This document shows positions 11,468 through 19,369 of a stretch of DNA of 64,000 bases, piece by piece. The first letter of the stretch is position 1. Each line of letters opens with the position of its first letter. Made by a program: the position numbers and the translations under genes. The stretch comes from Burkholderiales bacterium (GTDB taxonomy: Bacteria > Pseudomonadota > Gammaproteobacteria > Burkholderiales > Burkholderiaceae_E), in the NCBI GenBank assembly GCA_020248665.1, contig JADCHE010000036.1, positions 1,996 through 65,995 on the forward strand. Reading direction: 5' to 3'. Below the pieces are notes generated by a model. It saw only the letters and a program-made list of their open reading frames with translations, was not told the DNA's origin and did no database searches.

Positions 11468-12619
11468 TCAGCGCCCGCCGAGGCCCATCGACCGCGTGAT
11501 CACTTCCTTCATGATCTCGTTCGTGCCGCCGTAGATCCGCTGCACCCGCGCATCCGCCCAGGCACGCGCGATCGGGTACTCCCACATGTAGCCGTAGCCG
11601 CCGTGCAGCTGCACGCACTCGTCGATCACCTTGCACTGCAGGTCGCTGCACCAGTACTTCGCCATCGAGGCCGTCGCCGTGTCGAGCTCCTTGCGAAGCA
11701 GCAGCTCGATGCACCGGTCCACGAACACGCGGGCCACCTGCACCTCCGTCTGCAGCTCCGCGAGCTTGAAGCGCGTGTTCTGGAAGCTCGCGACCGTCGT
11801 GCCGAACGCCTTGCGCTCCTTCACGTACTGCACCGTCCAGTCGATCGCCGCCTGCGCCGATTCCACGCCCGAGATCGCGATCTGCAGCCGCTCCCAGGGC
11901 AGCTCCTGCATCAGGTAGACGAAGCCGCGGTTCAGCTCGCCGAGCAGGTTCGACTTCGGCACCTTCACGTTGTCGAAGAAGAGCTCCGCCGTGTCCTGCG
12001 CCTTCATACCCACCTTCTTCAGCCGCTTGCCCTTGTCGAAGCCGGGCATGCCGCGCTCGACCAGCAGCAGGCTCGTGCCTTTGGCACCCGCGTCCGGATT
12101 GGTCTTGGCCACGACGATCACCAGGTCGGCATGCCAGCCGTTCGTGATGAACGTCTTCGAGCCGTTCAGCAGGAAGTGGTCGCCCCGGTCGACCGCAGTC
12201 GAACGGATGCCCTGCAGGTCCGAACCCGCCGCAGGCTCGCTCATCGCGATCGCACCCACGATCTCGCCGCGGGCCATCGCCGGAAGGTACTTGCTCCGCT
12301 GCGCCTCGCTCCCGTAGGCGAGGATGTAGGGCGCGACGATCTCGTTGTGCAGCCCGAAGCCCAGCCCCGTGAAGCCCTGTCGCGCAATCTCCTCGAACAG
12401 CGCCACCGAATACAGCTTGTCCGCGTCGGCGCCGCCGTAAGCCTCCGGCATCGAGGTGCACAGCAGGCCCGTCTCGCCGGCCTTCGTCCAGACCTCGCGG
12501 TCGACGTGGCCCTGCTCTTCCCAGCGGGCGTGGTGGGGCGCGACCTCGTTCTCGAGGAAGCGGCGCACGGTGTCGCGGAACTGCAGGTGCTGCTCGGAGT
12601 ACAACGAACGTTCGATCAT
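11468..12619 (-). CDS. acyl-CoA dehydrogenase
   Basis: Full-length ACAD pattern: GAIAMSEPAAGSDLQ, FITNG, and the C-terminal QLHGGYGYMWEYPIARAWADARVQRIYGGTNEIMKEVI. Confidence 0.9.
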   Translation of the reverse strand: MIERSLYSEQHLQFRDTVRRFLENEVAPHHARWEEQGHVDREVWTKAGETGLLCTSMPEAYGGADADKLYSVALFEEIARQGFTGLGFGLHNEIVAPYILAYGSEAQRSKYLPAMARGEIVGAIAMSEPAAGSDLQGIRSTAVDRGDHFLLNGSKTFITNGWHADLVIVVAKTNPDAGAKGTSLLLVERGMPGFDKGKRLKKVGMKAQDTAELFFDNVKVPKSNLLGELNRGFVYLMQELPWERLQIAISGVESAQAAIDWTVQYVKERKAFGTTVASFQNTRFKLAELQTEVQVARVFVDRCIELLLRKELDTATASMAKYWCSDLQCKVIDECVQLHGGYGYMWEYPIARAWADARVQRIYGGTNEIMKEVITRSMGLGGR

Positions 12620-12644: not shown

Positions 12645-14537
12645 TCAGCCTCGTTCCAGCTCGCGCGTCGCAGCGACCGCCCGCAGCAGCGGCCGCATCA
12701 GCGCCTCGGACCGGAAGGGCTTGTGCAGCACCGTCGTGTCCGGCCCGGCCCGCACGCGCAAAGGTTCGATGTCGGGCTCGCCGGTAATCAGCACTGCAGC
12801 CGGAGAATACCCCAGCTGCCTGCGGAGCTCCGCGATCGCGGCGATGCCGTTCGCACCGCCGGCGAGCCGGTAGTCGCAGACGATCGCGTCGACCGTCCGG
12901 TCCGAGTCGGCTTCCTTCTCCAGCACCTCGGACAGCGACACGCCTGCCGTAACCCGCACGCCCCATTCGGCCATCAGCCTCGCTACTGCGGTGCGGGCAT
13001 CACGGTCGTCCTCGATCAGCAGGACGTAGGCGCCGCGCAACGGCGAGAGGTCGGGCAGGGGCATGGCTTCCGGCACCGCCGGCGCCATCGGCACGTAGGC
13101 GTCGACCGTCACGGCGGGCACCGTGACCGTGAACCGCGAGCCCCGCCCCGGCACCGACGCCATCGTCACCGTGTGGTCGGGAAGCTGCTCGATGATACGC
13201 CCGACCAGGAAGAGCCCGAGCCCCAGTCCCCGCTCACGATCACGCTCCACGTTGTTGAGCTGGACATACGGCTTCCAGATCTCCTCGAACGCTTCGGGCG
13301 CGACGCCGATGCCCGTATCGAACACGTCGATCCGACACCGATCGCCACGCATCCGTGCGGCGATCAACACCCGCCCGGCCCGCGTGTCGTCGCTGTGGGT
13401 GAACTTCACCGCGTTGGCGACCAGGTTGCTGAGCACCCGCTGGATCGAGCGGGCGTCGGTTTGCAGCACCACCGGCGAGCGCGGCGGCCGCACCCGCAGT
13501 TCGACCCCGCGCTTGTCGGCCTCGCCCACGTATCCCCCGTACAGGTCGCGCAGCAATGGCCGGAGCTCGAGCGGACGGATGTCGAGCGCCTCCGTGCCGC
13601 TATCGTAACGCGCCGCCGTGAGGAGATGATCGAGCGTCGTGCCGAGCATCGTCAGCGCTGCCTCGGCGCGCTCTGCAGGCTCGCGTGCGCGTTCAAGGTC
13701 GTCCGCCTGCAGCCGGGACCGAGCGACGTCGAGGTGGGCGACGGCAGCGGCCATGGGTTGGCGGAGGTCGTGGCTCACGGCGGCGATGAGTCGCGTCTTC
13801 TGGCGGTCCGCTTCTTCCGCGGCTGCCTGGCGCTCGCGGGCTTCGAGCCGAGCCGCTTCGGTCCGGCGGCGTTGATGGAAAAGCTCACGCTCGCGTGACT
13901 CGAGCAGTCGGCACAAGACCATGCCAAACACGTTCGCGAACGACAAGTAGAGGCAGCTTCTCAAGAACTCGCTACCGCCAATGACCATCGGAGCCCAAGC
14001 GACTGCCAAGACGCTTACCGCCCAACCAACGAGCGCGGACACCGAAATCGGCAGTCGCAAGAAGGCATAGTGCAAAAAAAGGCCGATCATGACTGCCGGG
14101 GAGGCTTGCACCGCCACAGCCCGCCCGCCCTCACCGGGAAGAGCGAGCAGCAACACGATTCCTCCTAAGCCAAACGCGCTCGTCCCCGCGACTACGAGAA
14201 CGTAGTTGCTGCTCGAAATGCCCCGCCGAAACCAAAGACAAGCACCGACGGATCCTAAGCCGAGAGCGAGAACCGCGCGGATCACCAACGCGGCAGCCGT
14301 GTGCTCCTCACTCGTCCACGAGACAACAAGGAATGCGCTGAACAGCGTTGACGCGCCTATGGCTGCGCACGCAGCGAGTCGGAACGCGGACTCGCGGAAC
14401 TGGCAAAGGAACTCAAGCTCGACATCTGCCGCAAGGAACCTTCTTCCTGCGACCCGCGGGTCTGCAAGCGTCTTCAAGTGCTCTCCATAGTCTGAAAGGC
14501 AGATCGGATGCGGTCTTCTGAACACAGTGATCACCAC
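12645..14537 (-). CDS. hybrid sensor histidine kinase / response regulator with a multi-helix membrane input domain
   Basis: H-box AAVSHDLRQPM, HATPase N/G boxes (LSNLVANAVKFT, FDTGIGV, GLGLGLFLV), and a C-terminal receiver (VLLIEDD...DAIVCDYRL...HKPF). GTG start. The 5' third is A/T-richer than the 3' part. Confidence 0.85.
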   Translation of the reverse strand: MVITVFRRPHPICLSDYGEHLKTLADPRVAGRRFLAADVELEFLCQFRESAFRLAACAAIGASTLFSAFLVVSWTSEEHTAAALVIRAVLALGLGSVGACLWFRRGISSSNYVLVVAGTSAFGLGGIVLLLALPGEGGRAVAVQASPAVMIGLFLHYAFLRLPISVSALVGWAVSVLAVAWAPMVIGGSEFLRSCLYLSFANVFGMVLCRLLESRERELFHQRRRTEAARLEARERQAAAEEADRQKTRLIAAVSHDLRQPMAAAVAHLDVARSRLQADDLERAREPAERAEAALTMLGTTLDHLLTAARYDSGTEALDIRPLELRPLLRDLYGGYVGEADKRGVELRVRPPRSPVVLQTDARSIQRVLSNLVANAVKFTHSDDTRAGRVLIAARMRGDRCRIDVFDTGIGVAPEAFEEIWKPYVQLNNVERDRERGLGLGLFLVGRIIEQLPDHTVTMASVPGRGSRFTVTVPAVTVDAYVPMAPAVPEAMPLPDLSPLRGAYVLLIEDDRDARTAVARLMAEWGVRVTAGVSLSEVLEKEADSDRTVDAIVCDYRLAGGANGIAAIAELRRQLGYSPAAVLITGEPDIEPLRVRAGPDTTVLHKPFRSEALMRPLLRAVAATRELERG

Positions 14538-14844
14538 AATCGGAAGTCAGCATGTTTCGTTGTTGTTGCATGGCGACGAACCGTCGACAATCAGCCATCA
14601 GGTCAGTTGACTTTCCCTCAATGTCTTGGGATTCGATTGCTCGAAACCCTAGAATTCTGTTAACTTTTTTGTGCGCAAGGGTTTGCAGTCTAGGAGTAGG
14701 CAGATGCTCTACCCTCTGTAGCCAGAAGGAGGTTCCGGCAGCTCTAGATCCGTGTGACCGCCGGCATGGTTGAACGACATACAAGGCGGTGGGACTTTGG
14801 ACGTGAAGAGACACAGCGCGAAGATTGCTTCGTACCACGAGAGC

Positions 14845-15573
14845 ATGAGCGCGCCGAAACCGGCGAAGCGACTCGAACTCCCCTTTCGGGTTCGGATTGT
14901 CCGTAATGACGCTCAACTTGAGCAGGCTGTTCGCATTCGCGCCGAAGCCTACTCGCGACACGTGCCGACGCTAGGGGAGGTCCTAGCTGAGCCCGAACCC
15001 GTTGACCGCAACCCAGATTCGATCGTCTTCTTGGCTGAAGGAAAGGTCGACGAGGAACCCCTCGGGACGATTCGCATTCAGACTAATTTCGTTTCTCCGC
15101 TATCGATCGAAAAGTCTGTCGAACTGCCGGAGCAATTCCGCGGCCGCCCGCTAGCAGGCGTATCTCGGCTTGGCGTCAAGGCGGGAGCGCGAGGACGATT
15201 AGTCAAGCTTGCGCTGTTCAAGGCGATGCACCGCTACTGCTTGGCAAAGCAGGTTGAATGGGTTCTGATCGGCGCTCGGCCGCCCTTAGACAAGGAATAC
15301 CTTGATCTGGGGTTCTTCGACGTCTTTCCCGATCGAGAGCCGCGGCCGCTGCTTTCTGCGAACGGCATCGCGCATCGCATTCTTGCGTTTGATGTTCAAG
15401 GCGCCGAAAGACACGCACTTGCTTCGAATCACCCGCTATACAGCTTCATGTTCCGCCGGTTTCATCCAGACATAGAGATCTTCGCCTCTGTAAGCAACAT
15501 GTGGAGTCGTCCCCGGCTTAGCCGGCGTCACTCCCTCACGGAACTTCAAGAACTGATTCCACCGGTGGTCTAG
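14845..15573 (+). CDS. GNAT-fold N-acyltransferase resembling N-acyl amino acid synthases / OlsB-type acyltransferases (Acetyltransf_5-like)
   Basis: QAVRIRAEAYSRHV...DSIVFLAEGKVDEEPLGTIRIQ, then AGVSRLGVKAGARGR...LFKAMHRYCLAKQVEWVLIGARPPLDKEYLDLGF. This matches the R-x-R..(V/A)(F/Y) plus SR(L/F) pattern of that family as I remember it. The start is uncertain (ATG 14845; ORF track TTG 14770). Confidence 0.6.
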   Translation: MSAPKPAKRLELPFRVRIVRNDAQLEQAVRIRAEAYSRHVPTLGEVLAEPEPVDRNPDSIVFLAEGKVDEEPLGTIRIQTNFVSPLSIEKSVELPEQFRGRPLAGVSRLGVKAGARGRLVKLALFKAMHRYCLAKQVEWVLIGARPPLDKEYLDLGFFDVFPDREPRPLLSANGIAHRILAFDVQGAERHALASNHPLYSFMFRRFHPDIEIFASVSNMWSRPRLSRRHSLTELQELIPPVV

Positions 15574-15675
15574 CGCCGCCGGATTCCCGGCAATCAACTG
15601 TCCGAGTCCGCCTGCAGCCACGCACCACGAACCGCTACATCGACTGTCGCGATTGCTTCCTCGCGCGGCATATGC

Positions 15676-16311
15676 TTAGCCAATAAGTGGAACAAAACGT
15701 CCAGTGGTCCGCCGGTACTGCTTGTACGCATCTCCGTTCGGTGAACCGGAAATCTCCGCTTCCTCAGTGAGCGCCGCGCTGCGATACCAGAGGTACATCG
15801 CCGCCAGTGCCATCCAAGACACTGTGGTCGGCACCCCCACTGCGATGCCGCCCCACATCAATAGGTAAGCTGAATAGATGGGATGCCGAACCCACCTATA
15901 CGGCCCTGACGTCATCAACGCACTGGGTGCGCCAGGCGTGAAGGCGATGTTGGGTGAGACGGTGCCGTGGGTAGCGAGTGAGTACCTAAAGAGTCCAAGA
16001 GCTCCCCACAGCATCGCAAGTCCGAGCAAGGCATTCCAACTCGGGTAGCTCGAACCGTAGACGAGAAGAACCACTGCATCCGCGATAGCCAAAGCATTGC
16101 CTGTTCGCCGAAGCCACTCGCGCTTTGTCGGCCTATCGCGCGGAACAACGAAGCGAGACCTGCGCGCCCGGCTAAAGACAAAGAGACACGTAAGGAAGGA
16201 CGCGAACAAAATCAGGGACATAGCCAGGTCGTGAGTCTTGTGGCGTGCAGTAATCAGAACGATCAGCAAAGAGACAGCGGCCTGGACCGCTGTTCGCCCC
16301 GGACCGCCCAT
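15676..16311 (-). CDS. isoprenylcysteine carboxyl methyltransferase (ICMT)/phospholipid methyltransferase-family membrane methyltransferase
   Basis: Multi-helix membrane protein with the family motif GPYRWVRHPIYSAYLLMWGGIAV and the C-terminal EE..L....G..Y..Y pattern (TEEAEISGSPNGDAYKQYRRTTGRF). Confidence 0.75.
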   Translation of the reverse strand: MGGPGRTAVQAAVSLLIVLITARHKTHDLAMSLILFASFLTCLFVFSRARRSRFVVPRDRPTKREWLRRTGNALAIADAVVLLVYGSSYPSWNALLGLAMLWGALGLFRYSLATHGTVSPNIAFTPGAPSALMTSGPYRWVRHPIYSAYLLMWGGIAVGVPTTVSWMALAAMYLWYRSAALTEEAEISGSPNGDAYKQYRRTTGRFVPLIG

Positions 16312-16390
16312 TCGTCGTCGTTACGCGCGTCAAGACAGTGAACGACCGCTAGTGTACTGAAGCCGAACTACGTCGAGGCAGGTTAGATCC

Positions 16391-19369
16391 ATGTTCGCAC
16401 GCGCGCTACGGCGTATGTCGAACTTCGTCTCACGAACAATCGCAGCGATCTCTATGCTGGCGGTTGTGACCGGCGTTGGCTTGGCTCACCTGCTTTTATC
16501 GGGCCCTGACTCTTCATACACGGGCACGCGCGTTGAGATACGTCACGCTGGAGGGCTCGACAGCAAGGCTGGCCTCTCGGACGCTCTCGCAGTTCTGAGA
16601 TCGACCACGGCCATCGCAGGCGAAGCTCGAACGAACCGCTCCGAGCTTCCTTACTGGCTACTTGCAGATGTGCCGATCCCTCGGGACGGAGACGCACGGT
16701 CGGTTCACCTGCCGTCACGACACGCGCAGTCGGTAAGGATCTGGTTACTCGACGAAGACGGCGAGGTCTTGATCACTGGAAGTGCCGTTCGCGGCAGTGA
16801 CTCCGGTGACATCAAGGCCCGACGCGCAGGGTTCAGCTTCGACATTCCGACTTTCTCCCGCGCGGTCACCGTTGTTGCTCGGATCGAATCAACAGGGCCT
16901 GCGCGTCTCTCCGTCGAGATCTGGAAAACGGCTGATATTGTCGCCGCCTCCCGCCAGTTCGATCAATCGGGCGGAGTTCTGTTCGGCAGCCTTCTAATGG
17001 TCGCCGCCTTCGGCACACTGACGTCGATGCTTACCCGAGACTGGGTATTCTTTATCTTCGCGGCGTGGACCATTGCAAGCCTCCGATTCGCGTCTTACTC
17101 GAGCGGATGGGACCTCGCATGGCTGGGCCTCCCAACGGCAGAAGACTATCCACGGCTGGTTCGCAATATCCCATTGGCGATCTACGCGGTCCTAACGGTG
17201 GCGCTGTTTCATGGCATCTTCAAGAAAGACATCGCTCGCCTCCGAGTTGGTTCGCACATCCGGGTTTTCGTTGTCTTGGCTGGAGCACTCCTGTTAGCTG
17301 CCCCAGTTTTGCCGCACCAGCATTTTCTTCCGGTCCTTTGGTTAGTTAGTGGGCCTTGCTTGGCGTATCTGATGTGGACGACGCTTCGCATCATCTCAGG
17401 AACCGGGTCGTCGGCCGCGATTTGGTACTGTGCTTCTTGGCTAACCACACTCGCTGGATCAGTTGGAGAAATTGCCTTCGCGTCGGGGATCGTTCCGAAG
17501 ATGCCCGTACTGATAAACAGCCTATCTGGAGCTGTGTTCTCTACGTTGCTTGCGGGAATATCTCTTGCCGAACGGATCAACTCGGAAAGAATGCGGCGCG
17601 TATCTGCCCAGACGCGAGCAGTCGAGGTGTTGAAGCGCTTCCAAGAGAACTACAACTCGATGCCGATCGGACTCTTCAGCCTCGACTCGAGAGGTGTGAT
17701 TCGTCTCCACAATCCGTCCTTCATGCAGATGTTCGCCCTAAAGCGTGAACCAGACTCGGAGGTAGAGCTCGAGATCGACTACCTGCTTGGGGAAGGAACC
17801 TTCTCGAGACTTCAGGATGCAGCGGCACACAGCAGCGGCAATGACATCGAGCTACATTTACCGAGCGACCAAGGTGCTGGGCGTTGGTTCCTCGCGAGGG
17901 TCACTCGCAAAGGCGAGTCGATAGAGGGCTCTGTTCAAGATATCACGACACGTAAGCTGGCAGAAGGGCAGCTCAAACACCTCGTTGATCACGACCACCT
18001 AACTGGCCTACTAAATCGTCGAGGACTAGAGGGGACTCTCAGTCGAGCAATCAGCAGTGTAGGTGAGGGCGGCCGATGCGCGATCGCGTATGTCGACCTC
18101 GATCGCTTCAAGCTAATCAACGATCTGCACGGGCACGGCACGGGTGACGCACTGATTCAGCAAACCGCCCGACGACTGAAGTCTGCGGTACGTGCGAGGG
18201 ATCATGTTGCTCGCTTCGCCGATGGTTTTGTTGTCATATTCATGGACTGCCCCGAACACGTCGTCGTCGGTCTGACCGAGCGTATCCGCGAAGTCGTCGG
18301 TGAGTTGCCGTTCGAGGTCAACGGCAAGGGCCTGAACATGACCGTCAGCGTCGGCGTGGTCTCGATCGACCCGTCGATGTCGTCGGTCGACGCGATGGCG
18401 GCGGCAGACCGGGCGTGCAACGAGGCGAAGGCGCGAGGCCGAAATTGTGTCGTTCGACTGACCGACAAGGATGCGGCGCTGCGGATGCACCTCGAGGAAC
18501 TCAAGGTCGTCGCGGACCTGCAGAAGCGGGTGCAGACGGAACGCTACTTCCTCGAGTTCCAGCCGATCGTGGCGCTGCAGTCGGCGATGGCGTCGACGAG
18601 CTACGAGGTCCTGATCCGGATGCGCGGCGAAGGCGGCCGGGTCATTCCGCCGGGCAAGTTCATCGGGGCGGCCGAGCGCAACGGCCTGATGTCGCAGATC
18701 GACCGGTGGGTGCTTCGCAGCACGCTCGAGTGGCTGGACGATCACCCGGACCATCGGGACCGGCTCGCGTTCGCCACGATCAACATCAGCGGTGCGTCGC
18801 TCAACGACATCCGCTTCGTCGACGATGCGTTCGCGATGATCGCCGAGCATCCGCTCGCGATGCCGAAGCTCTGCTTCGAGATCACGGAGAGCGTGGCGCT
18901 GCACGACCTGGGGTCGACGCGGCGCTTCTTCGATCGGGTGAGGATGTACGGGAGCAAGCTGGCGCTCGACGACTTCGGCGCGGGCTACACCTCCTTCAAT
19001 TACCTGAAGGAGATCCCGGCGGACTTCATCAAGATCGACGGCAGCTTCGTCAAGGAGATCAACCGGAACCCGGCCAACTACGCGATCACGAGGATGATCG
19101 TCGACCTGACGCACGAACTGGGCATGCGGAGCATCGCGGAATGGGCGGAGACGCCGGACACGATCGCGTCCCTGATCCAGCTGGGCGTCGACTACGGCCA
19201 GGGCTTCGGCCTCGCGCGTCCGATGGCTCCGGAGATCGTGACGGCGGCCACTTCGGGCGGAGCGCTCGTCAACGACCCGCTGGTGCTGACCCTGCTGCAG
19301 GACGGCACGGCGGGGGCCGCGATCGGAGCTGCGACGGGTCAAGGGCGCCGCCGCCAGATCGCTCGCTGA
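16391..19369 (+). CDS. 7TMR-DISM-type receptor with PAS, a degenerate GGDEF domain and an EAL domain (probable c-di-GMP phosphodiesterase)
   Basis: N-terminal periplasmic domain plus about 7 helices; a PAS-like segment; a GGDEF domain whose signature reads RFADGF instead of GGDEF (about 18210-18236). The EAL domain has YEVLIR, DDFGAGYTSFNYL, KIDGSFV, and AEWAETPD...GVDYGQGF. Confidence 0.85.
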   Translation: MFARALRRMSNFVSRTIAAISMLAVVTGVGLAHLLLSGPDSSYTGTRVEIRHAGGLDSKAGLSDALAVLRSTTAIAGEARTNRSELPYWLLADVPIPRDGDARSVHLPSRHAQSVRIWLLDEDGEVLITGSAVRGSDSGDIKARRAGFSFDIPTFSRAVTVVARIESTGPARLSVEIWKTADIVAASRQFDQSGGVLFGSLLMVAAFGTLTSMLTRDWVFFIFAAWTIASLRFASYSSGWDLAWLGLPTAEDYPRLVRNIPLAIYAVLTVALFHGIFKKDIARLRVGSHIRVFVVLAGALLLAAPVLPHQHFLPVLWLVSGPCLAYLMWTTLRIISGTGSSAAIWYCASWLTTLAGSVGEIAFASGIVPKMPVLINSLSGAVFSTLLAGISLAERINSERMRRVSAQTRAVEVLKRFQENYNSMPIGLFSLDSRGVIRLHNPSFMQMFALKREPDSEVELEIDYLLGEGTFSRLQDAAAHSSGNDIELHLPSDQGAGRWFLARVTRKGESIEGSVQDITTRKLAEGQLKHLVDHDHLTGLLNRRGLEGTLSRAISSVGEGGRCAIAYVDLDRFKLINDLHGHGTGDALIQQTARRLKSAVRARDHVARFADGFVVIFMDCPEHVVVGLTERIREVVGELPFEVNGKGLNMTVSVGVVSIDPSMSSVDAMAAADRACNEAKARGRNCVVRLTDKDAALRMHLEELKVVADLQKRVQTERYFLEFQPIVALQSAMASTSYEVLIRMRGEGGRVIPPGKFIGAAERNGLMSQIDRWVLRSTLEWLDDHPDHRDRLAFATINISGASLNDIRFVDDAFAMIAEHPLAMPKLCFEITESVALHDLGSTRRFFDRVRMYGSKLALDDFGAGYTSFNYLKEIPADFIKIDGSFVKEINRNPANYAITRMIVDLTHELGMRSIAEWAETPDTIASLIQLGVDYGQGFGLARPMAPEIVTAATSGGALVNDPLVLTLLQDGTAGAAIGAATGQGRRRQIAR

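Follow-up and report, generated by a model that had tools for sequence, protein, structure and literature searches.

We analysed a 64,000-nucleotide (nt) stretch of DNA, hereafter the window, from a Burkholderiales bacterium (contig JADCHE010000036.1, positions 1,996 to 65,995, of GenBank assembly GCA_020248665.1, a metagenome-assembled genome (MAG) of 218 contigs), and focused on a low-GC islet whose edges fall inside two signalling genes. An initial inspection of the nucleotide letters and their translations, the sequence-only reading, had placed this islet at 13900-18200. A two-breakpoint likelihood fit to the raw GC agrees, giving edges at 13870 and 18340, with a GC content of 0.577 inside and 0.703 outside, and the four 60-nt G+C counts on which the reading relied are exact (30/60, 28/60 and 33/60 in the islet, 48/60 in flanking DNA). 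On the basis of this fit and of the composition profiles, we define 13870..18340, which has no strand, as the hypervariable cassette tract. Per-kilobase GC is 0.56-0.59 across 14001-18000, the next-lowest kilobase reaches 0.65 and the window mean is 0.707. Genome-wide (5.07 Mb, GC 0.7275), 4-kb windows average 0.727 with a standard deviation (SD) of 0.024; the islet is the lowest of the 8,515 such windows, 6.3 SD below the mean, and 0.02% of windows are equally low.

The gene coordinates and domain calls of the sequence-only reading hold. On the left flank lies a conserved acyl-CoA dehydrogenase gene (ACD; 11468..12619, minus strand; Pfam Acyl-CoA_dh_N/M/1), which has a GC content at third codon positions (GC3) of 0.94 and serves as a species marker. 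As a fatty-acid beta-oxidation-type gene, it may also help to supply acyl donors to the FeeM-like enzyme described below. It is followed by a hybrid histidine kinase gene (HK; 12645-14537, minus strand), with HisKA at residues 246-314, HATPase at 361-475 and a receiver at 505-614 (Pfam). Its output part (12645..13810) is GC-rich (GC3 0.87), resident and tracks the species tree; the C-terminal region gives an NCBIfam NahK/ErcS-like match below the cut-off. Its input part (13811..14537, minus strand; GC3 0.68) has about 5-6 transmembrane helices by hydropathy, forms a compact bundle and matched no Pfam family. Since the relatives' kinases have 610-612 amino acids, translation probably starts downstream of the GTG at 14537. 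A divergent intergenic region (14538..14769, GC 0.51), with the presumed promoters, separates the kinase gene from a gene for a FeeM-like N-acyl amino acid synthase (14770..15573, plus strand; GC3 0.61), an N-acyl homoserine lactone (AHL)-synthase-like GNAT protein that forms the core of the cassette. An ICMT/PEMT-family membrane methyltransferase gene follows (15676..16311, minus strand; Pfam PEMT), and then a gene for a 7TMR-DISM/PAS/GGDEF/EAL protein, the receptor (16391-19369, plus strand). The cassette part of the receptor gene (16391..18302, plus strand; GC3 0.62) covers a DISMED2-like region (residues ~40-190), seven transmembrane helices (7TM, 195-400), a PAS domain (~405-525) and the first ~100 GGDEF codons; its resident output (18303..19369, plus strand; GC3 0.91) holds the end of a degenerate GGDEF domain and the EAL domain. 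The 7TMR-DISM_7TM domain scores above its Pfam cut-off (36.8 bits against 29), DISMED2 below it (19.4 against 22). The EAL domain scores 207 bits (Pfam) and, with the motifs EVL, EITE, DDFGAGY, KID and QGF readable in the translation, is apparently an intact phosphodiesterase domain; the GGDEF signature is degenerate, RFADGF replacing RxGGDEF. The likely output of the receptor is hydrolysis of cyclic di-GMP (c-di-GMP).

As had been claimed, the composition does not change at gene boundaries. The sequence-only reading had accepted that an absence of GC3 breakpoints within the two mosaic genes would speak against it, and we found breakpoints in both. In the HK gene, GC3 steps from 0.68 to 0.87 at codon 242 (log-likelihood gain, dlnL, 15.1 against a permutation maximum of 8.8), with a broad support interval of codons 188-329. 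In the receptor gene it steps from 0.62 to 0.91 at codon 637 (dlnL 54.5 against 7.9; support interval 616-642). Thus, the low-GC sensor half of the receptor gene is real, but the claim that its whole GGDEF-EAL output is GC-rich is not: the right edge of the islet does not coincide with the sensor/output border but falls within the GGDEF domain (residues 533-685), so that PAS and roughly two thirds of GGDEF share the low GC. The amino-acid preferences of membrane proteins are ruled out as the cause, because GC3 itself drops and the FeeM-like enzyme, which is soluble, is equally low (0.61).

The reading had also seen no integrase, tRNA or obvious flanking repeats, and we confirmed each of these: none of the four open reading frames (ORFs) of the cassette is an integrase or transposase gene by Pfam, there is no tRNA in the part of the window from 8 to 26 kb, and only short chance repeats flank the islet. 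The islet therefore lacks the marks of a mobile genomic island, namely an integrase or transposase, a tRNA or other attachment site and flanking direct repeats. The sole other genome region with a 4-kb GC below 0.60 lies on another contig (C82:18501-23500). We rejected rRNA as its identity. By eye from the translations, its products are a tyrosine integrase, a PLD-like protein, an OLD-like AAA-ATPase and a helicase-like protein with an S24/LexA-like end, a content that marks it as a classical mobile/defence island.

The FeeM-like protein matches Pfam PF21926 with 34.7 bits (cut-off 27), its residues 53-197 aligning to profile positions 2-150 of 158. Its AlphaFold2 model has a pLDDT of 85, and the top Foldseek match of this model is FeeM itself (2G0B; E 1.5e-9, TM-score on the target 0.70), with the AHL synthases BjaI, RpaI and LasI also among the matches. 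On this model, the protein is predicted to have a FeeM/AHL-synthase-like GNAT fold. The likeness to FeeM and to LuxI-type AHL synthases lies in the Pfam score and in FeeM being the best structural match; the difference is that sequence identity is just 17-19%. A profile search of PDB sequences gave no match. No NCBIfam family matched the protein either, and an assignment to the exosortase-associated acyltransferases was rejected for that reason. The likely start codon is the ATG at 14845 rather than the one at 14770; conservation of the protein begins at residue ~37. The genome has one copy of the gene, whose distribution in the order is patchy (6 of 151 genomes, in 4 families). The methyltransferase scores above the Pfam cut-off for PEMT (31.6 bits against 25), below that for ICMT (22.3 against 24) and far under that of the NCBIfam isoprenylcysteine methyltransferase model (39 against 160), scores that place it in the ICMT/PEMT superfamily.

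We then compared the locus with that of related bacteria. In a DNA search of 40 related genomes, a dozen congeners matched the window at the two ends of the locus, equally spaced, but not in between, and in the three relatives inspected a GC trough of 0.52-0.58 lies at the same place. Scanning named genomes with the FeeM alignment yielded 39 loci, whose sources are Burkholderiaceae-type MAGs and one isolate, Quisquiliibacterium transsilvanicum DSM 29781, on contigs that include some of 0.6-3.7 Mb. Nearly all of them have the gene order acyl-CoA dehydrogenase (minus), kinase (minus), FeeM (plus), receptor (plus), and nearly all share the GC3 dip. Amino-acid identity to the window is 77-90% for the acyl-CoA dehydrogenase (27 loci), and across loci 45-72% for FeeM, 31-63% for the HK and 37-66% for the receptor. 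Mean GC3 across loci falls from.88 in ACD and.76 in the HK output to.64 in the HK input,.62 in FeeM and.55 in the ICMT-like gene, and is.62-.63 in the periplasmic and transmembrane parts of the receptor,.75 in PAS,.79-.83 in GGDEF and.86 in EAL. The right edge of the low-GC3 tract varies: it follows the 7TM region in many loci, lies within GGDEF in the window and coincides with the GGDEF/EAL junction in L036, L040 and L051. In L034, L038 and L064, low GC3 extends over the kinase output too. None of the sampled hosts has a genome-wide composition that matches the cassette.

Some loci depart from this pattern. In L059-L061, from Noviherbaspirillum and an unclassified Burkholderiales MAG, FeeM-receptor pairs stand without an adjacent kinase or acyl-CoA dehydrogenase gene; these few and distant loci are the only ones without a GC3 dip, their FeeM genes having a GC3 of about 0.81. 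In the kinase gene of L030 (3720-5505) and the receptor gene of L039 (6934-9809), tblastn gives abutting pieces in different frames, which suggests frameshifts, arising either from decay of the locus in some lineages or from sequencing errors.

Next, we aligned pairs of loci with nearly identical flanks. Between L047 and L054 both flanks are 92-98% identical in nucleotide sequence while the cassettes are 35-55% identical, with edges at HK codon ~190 and receptor codon ~405 that coincide with the input/output junctions. The edges lie at HK codon ~190 and receptor codon ~410 between L035 and L030, and at HK codon ~120 and receptor codon ~700 between L040 and L036. L043 and L045 are two contigs (JAMLIR010000039 and JAMLIR010000001) of one MAG, ACE_NR_PROT22, representing either co-existing strains or an assembler haplotig; their identity is 100% for the ~5 kb that lead to kinase codon ~250 and 50-60% beyond it. 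L046 and L065 are likewise two copies of the locus, with different cassettes, in one MAG (SRP239054_co1_57). Hence the edges differ by event, from HK codon ~120 to ~250 and from receptor codon ~405 to ~700, and in each compared pair the replaced tract is the low-GC tract.

The closest relative of the window was sought by querying 5.8 billion proteins with the EAL part alone. The best hit, P0002, is 97% identical to the window receptor in EAL, 87% in GGDEF, 55% in PAS and 28% in the sensor. Its contig, L066 (logan:SRR12871537_14553), is 85-98% identical to the window at the nucleotide level from ~18100 (codon ~580) to 20230, and about 50% identical upstream of ~17990 (codon ~530), so that the identity break adjoins the GC3 change point of the receptor gene. 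Nucleotide identity to congeners likewise climbs, from 0.67 to 0.85, at 18350-18650. Directly upstream of the L066 receptor gene, at 155-1164 on the minus strand, lies an IS3-family transposase gene (HTH_Tnp_1 and rve) in the place expected for the FeeM and ICMT-like genes; the contig does not extend to the remainder of the locus. The reading had asked whether relatives' kinase and EAL genes carry different N-termini; both do in L047/L054, L035/L030 and L040/L036, and the EAL gene does in window/L066.

We consider it very likely that these patterns reflect cassette exchange with intragenic crossovers. As there is no tRNA, integrase or real repeat, the exchange proceeds by homologous recombination, with the conserved DNA of the output domains as its anchor. 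We also considered, and rejected as the source of the mosaic, gene conversion in which paralogous EAL or kinase genes supplied the GC-rich ends: the best paralogue in the same genome is 68% identical over ~650 nt, against the 85-98% reached by the orthologous flanks.

Trees built on 20 complete loci revealed that the cassette and its frame have different histories. The ACD, EAL, GGDEF and HK-output trees concur on a seven-member genus clade that includes the window, on L030 and L035 as sisters and on a close grouping of L042-L056. Five other groups, each with a support of 97-100, are common to the FeeM and receptor-sensor trees: type A (the window, L027 and L030), type B (L040, L051, L052 and L053), type C (L033-L036 and L038), type D (L042, L054 and L055) and type E (L045, L047, L049 and L056). 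The HK-input tree mostly tracks the cassette. In approximately unbiased (AU) tests, the cassette data reject the flank clades with p from 5e-7 to 3e-104 (L030+L035, 3e-104; L047+L054+L055, 1e-53; the genus clade, 5e-45), and the flank data reject type C (4e-125), type A (2e-37), type B (0.007) and type D (0.03). The cassette thus comprises discrete allelic types that are incongruent with the organismal phylogeny.

These trees also define what moves together. With flank distance controlled, partial Mantel correlations are 0.91 for FeeM and sensor, 0.68 for sensor and HK input, 0.56 for FeeM and HK input, and -0.02 for FeeM and HK output. The minimal co-moving unit is FeeM plus the receptor sensor, a pair that is never split in these loci; the kinase input usually joins, and the ICMT-like gene belongs to one type only, being present just in the type A carriers (the window and L027-L032) among the 39 loci. 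Between these carriers it is 31-38% identical in amino-acid sequence, as compared with 63-72% for FeeM, which makes it the fastest-diverging protein of the cassette. Between types, the cassette part of the receptor is 10-50% identical in amino-acid sequence, and its DISMED2-like periplasmic region, at 10-25%, is the most divergent. Among 87 full-length members of the family we counted 17-24 sensor types. Sensor identity is bimodal in pairs whose EAL domains are at least 95% identical, 34 of these pairs falling at 0.2-0.4 and 27 at 0.6-0.9, and two sensor types occur together in seven of the nine tight EAL clusters.

The sequence-only reading had proposed a recombinational swap in which two sensor inputs and two small-molecule enzymes were fused onto resident output domains. 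Tree incongruence with its AU tests, the step-edged pairs and the L066 break uphold such a recombined cassette, and the separate input and output phylogenies that the reading called for do conflict, the FeeM and sensor trees disagreeing with the EAL, GGDEF, HK-output and ACD trees. It had conceded that a shared composition profile together with congruent phylogenies in relatives would tell against a swap; the profile is indeed shared, but the phylogenies are incongruent, and the swap stands. Three points need revision. Rather than having happened once and recently in this genome, the exchange belongs to a clade-wide, multi-allelic polymorphism, in which relatives share the profile. FeeM and the receptor sensor are cassette members as proposed, the HK input is one usually but not always, and the ICMT-like gene is not a general member. 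Lastly, the reading had asked whether both enzymes are missing from relatives: the ICMT-like gene is, outside type A, but FeeM is present in the 39 loci that the FeeM scan yielded.

Taken together, we propose that the islet is, rather probably, one allele of a hypervariable specificity cassette in a conserved signalling locus of Quisquiliibacterium-related Burkholderiales. The fixed frame consists of the acyl-CoA dehydrogenase, the kinase/receiver output of the HK and the (degenerate GGDEF)-EAL output of the 7TMR-DISM receptor. The variable middle is made up of the kinase membrane input, the FeeM-like synthase, the DISMED2/7TM(/PAS) receptor input and, in one type, the ICMT-like methyltransferase. 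Its many allelic types, which diverge deeply, all occupy one chromosomal site, an old polymorphism of the whole clade. Crossovers in the conserved output-domain DNA generate the mosaic sensor genes. In our model, the synthase would make a lipid-like N-acyl amino acid signal, whose free carboxylate the ICMT-like enzyme would methyl-esterify in type A. Both co-inherited membrane inputs would sense this signal and pass it on to a phosphorelay and to c-di-GMP hydrolysis, and diversification of the types would create private communication or kin groups, as in the agr and comQXP systems.

That the cassette encodes a signal and its cognate sensors, the types being specificity classes, is the more tentative part of this model, to which we would give slightly less than an even chance. 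It draws on analogy with agr, comQXP and the RpfF/RpfR system of Burkholderia. The synthase gene lies directly upstream of the receptor gene and the second receptor is transcribed divergently, a layout resembling that of known autoinducer loci. Alternatively, the exchange would be real but driven by something other than private signalling. An antagonist (a bacteriocin, a phage or a competitor's molecule) might select for variation, or FeeM might make a membrane aminolipid that the sensors monitor, the parts moving together by adjacency. The DISMED2-like periplasmic region being the most divergent part fits such a driver, and the products of the FeeM family are reported to include surfactant-like and membrane-active lipids. 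Moreover, linkage alone accounts for the co-variation, and this also weighs against the signalling model, in which the FeeM product would be bound by both inputs, a view that comes from their co-inheritance and gene order: tight physical linkage would give the same result. On the other side, sensors of the inner membrane are poorly exposed to phages and bacteriocins, the synthase-receptor layout with a divergent second receptor is of the autoinducer type, and discrete types with a FeeM conserved within each suit specificity classes better than an arms-race continuum. We regard a driver other than signalling as unlikely.

A different account would dispense with a standing polymorphism and explain the islet by a single horizontal import from a lower-GC donor, still un-ameliorated, with the intragenic edges produced by homologous recombination with donor orthologues. 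The sharp step in GC and GC3, the rank of the islet as the lowest-GC tract of the genome and the lack of a close relative of its cassette in our samples all suit an import, which we nonetheless find very improbable. The same dip recurs at the same locus, with many different alleles, in nearly all of the 39 loci, no sampled host has the composition of the cassette, and the integrase, tRNA and repeats are missing, unlike in the other low-GC island of the genome. The way in which the cassettes evolve is also at odds with an import. In L045, L047 and L049, which share a type, FeeM is 90-92% identical in amino-acid sequence while identity at its four-fold sites is down to.32-.35, close to saturation, as compared with.52-.66 in the flanks, and these cassettes hold a GC3 of ~.6 in hosts with a GC3 of ~.9 despite such synonymous turnover. 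This combination implies strong purifying selection and alleles older than their current backgrounds. Recent polarised substitutions in the cassette, 53 from A/T to G/C and 102 in the opposite direction, contain no AT-to-GC excess, and the AT-biased mutational input is alike in both tracts, with an implied mutational equilibrium GC of ~.39 in the cassette and ~.35 in the flank; consequently, the tract is not foreign DNA in the course of amelioration.

Instead of un-ameliorated foreign DNA, then, the low GC appears to be the cassette's own steady state, and a weaker GC-favouring fixation bias inside the cassette must underlie the contrast. A link between recombination and GC3, through GC-biased gene conversion (gBGC), has been described in bacteria (PMC4450053). 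One possible explanation, which we put forward with some reserve and would not back at even stakes, is that alleles too divergent to form heteroduplex escape gBGC, or efficient selection, and settle at a GC3 of ~0.6 when the rest of the genome is at ~0.9.

One could also deny any exchange: the locus would be inherited vertically, with a middle that evolves fast under relaxed constraint or positive selection, a low GC that stems from amino-acid usage and AT-biased mutation, and tree conflicts that are long-branch artefacts. In keeping with this, low GC3 coincides with low protein conservation, the cassette trees are long-branched and came with warnings, and mutation is AT-biased everywhere. We nevertheless judge it very improbable. 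It is GC3 and not just GC1 or GC2 that falls, the soluble FeeM being as low as the membrane parts. In the near-clonal pair L054/L055, identity at four-fold sites is.90-.98 in the cassette and.86-.95 in the flanks, so the cassette does not mutate faster, and the conservation of FeeM within a type, beside nearly saturated synonymous sites, indicates strong purifying selection. Furthermore, rate variation cannot produce flanks of 92-100% identity beside cassettes of 35-60% with step-like edges, and the same five groups emerge independently, and well supported (97-100), from the FeeM and sensor trees, with strong AU rejections. Finally, a chimeric assembly or mis-binning that joined unrelated DNA inside both genes is extremely improbable: it is true that our genome is a MAG of 218 contigs and that mis-binning affects some related records, but both mosaic ORFs are intact and full-length, and 39 independent assemblies, among them that of the isolate DSM 29781 and contigs of 0.6-3.7 Mb, show this architecture and the GC step.

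Several points weigh against the specificity-cassette model or the evidence for it. The window cassette is just 60-70% identical in nucleotide sequence to that of any sampled relative, which means that the replacement here is old or its donor unsampled. The kinase input can stay behind when FeeM moves, as in L036, which keeps the HK input typical of its species. The groups compared in the AU tests were named after the trees had been seen. In the L043/L045 pair, what looks like two co-existing strains could instead reflect an assembler haplotig or an artefactual duplication. As to composition, synonymous divergence is hard to compare between tracts with a GC3 of 0.6 and 0.9, the polarisation of substitutions relied on rather distant outgroups, and the same standing composition would be expected from selection for AT-rich DNA (for instance, for silencer binding) or from weak codon selection at a locus with low expression. 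Most of the genomes are MAGs, and the records L037, L047 and L048 are almost certainly mis-binned. These three are titled Pirellula, Actinomycetes and Methanoregulaceae MAGs and yet carry the Burkholderiaceae-type locus, the acyl-CoA dehydrogenase of L047 being ~80% identical to that of the window; their taxon labels are unreliable.

The textbook cases of polymorphic communication loci with intragenic hypervariable tracts, agr and comQXP, come from Firmicutes. The window tract resembles them in that it spans one or more putative signal-making genes together with receptor input, the output being conserved. In staphylococcal agr (agrBDCA), the hypervariable region lies within agrB, agrD and agrC, that is, a variable tract with intragenic edges covers the signal-making functions and the membrane input of the receptor kinase, the output is conserved and the types are discrete (PMC10482373). 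It differs from the window locus in using a ribosomal peptide, AgrD, processed by AgrB, and a single receptor in a Gram-positive host. The window locus has a FeeM/LuxI-like GNAT enzyme, two receptors (a hybrid kinase and an EAL phosphodiesterase), types common to species and genera, a strong GC contrast and a signalling role that we only infer. Bacillus comQXPA similarly places polymorphic genes for a synthase/modifier, a signal and receptor input beside a conserved output, and its pherotypes are incongruent with strain phylogeny (PMC4408185); its signal is an isoprenylated peptide, sensed by a single kinase in a Gram-positive host with no c-di-GMP branch. We found no gene for a ribosomal peptide pheromone in the variable tract of the window, just the GNAT synthase and methyltransferase genes. 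Thus, the window locus is not a member of the agr/comQXP family, and the architecture is only analogous.

Closer in taxonomy is the RpfF/RpfR system of Burkholderia cenocepacia, also in Burkholderiales, where a synthase gene for a lipid-type signal (Burkholderia diffusible signal factor, BDSF) is paired with a receptor for c-di-GMP turnover, RpfR, a PAS-GGDEF-EAL protein that senses the lipid (PMC3703271). RpfR is cytoplasmic and RpfF is a crotonase, as opposed to the 7TMR-DISM membrane receptor and GNAT synthase of the window locus. The RpfF/RpfR pair is described as highly conserved, not hypervariable (PMC4698668). The window locus also resembles another kind of system. Clusters for O-antigen and capsule synthesis are alternative, unalignable low-GC cassettes at a fixed site, exchanged via conserved flanking genes. 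There, whole biosynthetic sets are bounded by whole genes; in the window the edges are intragenic, at or near domain junctions, and create chimeric proteins. Our literature searches found no description of a Gram-negative equivalent of an intragenic hypervariable communication locus, and none of such a locus that combines a FeeM/LuxI-like acyl-transfer enzyme with a c-di-GMP output.

What would this mean for these bacteria? In its fullest and most speculative form, which we hold to be possible but doubtful, the locus would be a Gram-negative pherotype system with dozens of private classes, maintained for long and swapped between species inside the receptor genes, and at the same time a natural experiment on gBGC. 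If so, a non-recombining cassette relaxing to a GC3 of ~0.6 would show that the very high GC3 of these genomes depends on homologous recombination, through gBGC. This bears on why hypervariable loci are often AT-rich: a foreign donor fails as an explanation here, and a local loss of GC-biased fixation fits better. The locus also illustrates the modularity of signalling domains, since the same kinase/receiver and EAL outputs have repeatedly been refitted with new inputs by ordinary homologous recombination, with crossovers that cluster close to the input/output junctions. Finally, it gives a way of testing what N-acyl amino acid synthases do in bacteria, where little is known of their natural role, and which ligands 7TMR-DISM receptors bind; a cultured carrier exists in Quisquiliibacterium transsilvanicum DSM 29781.

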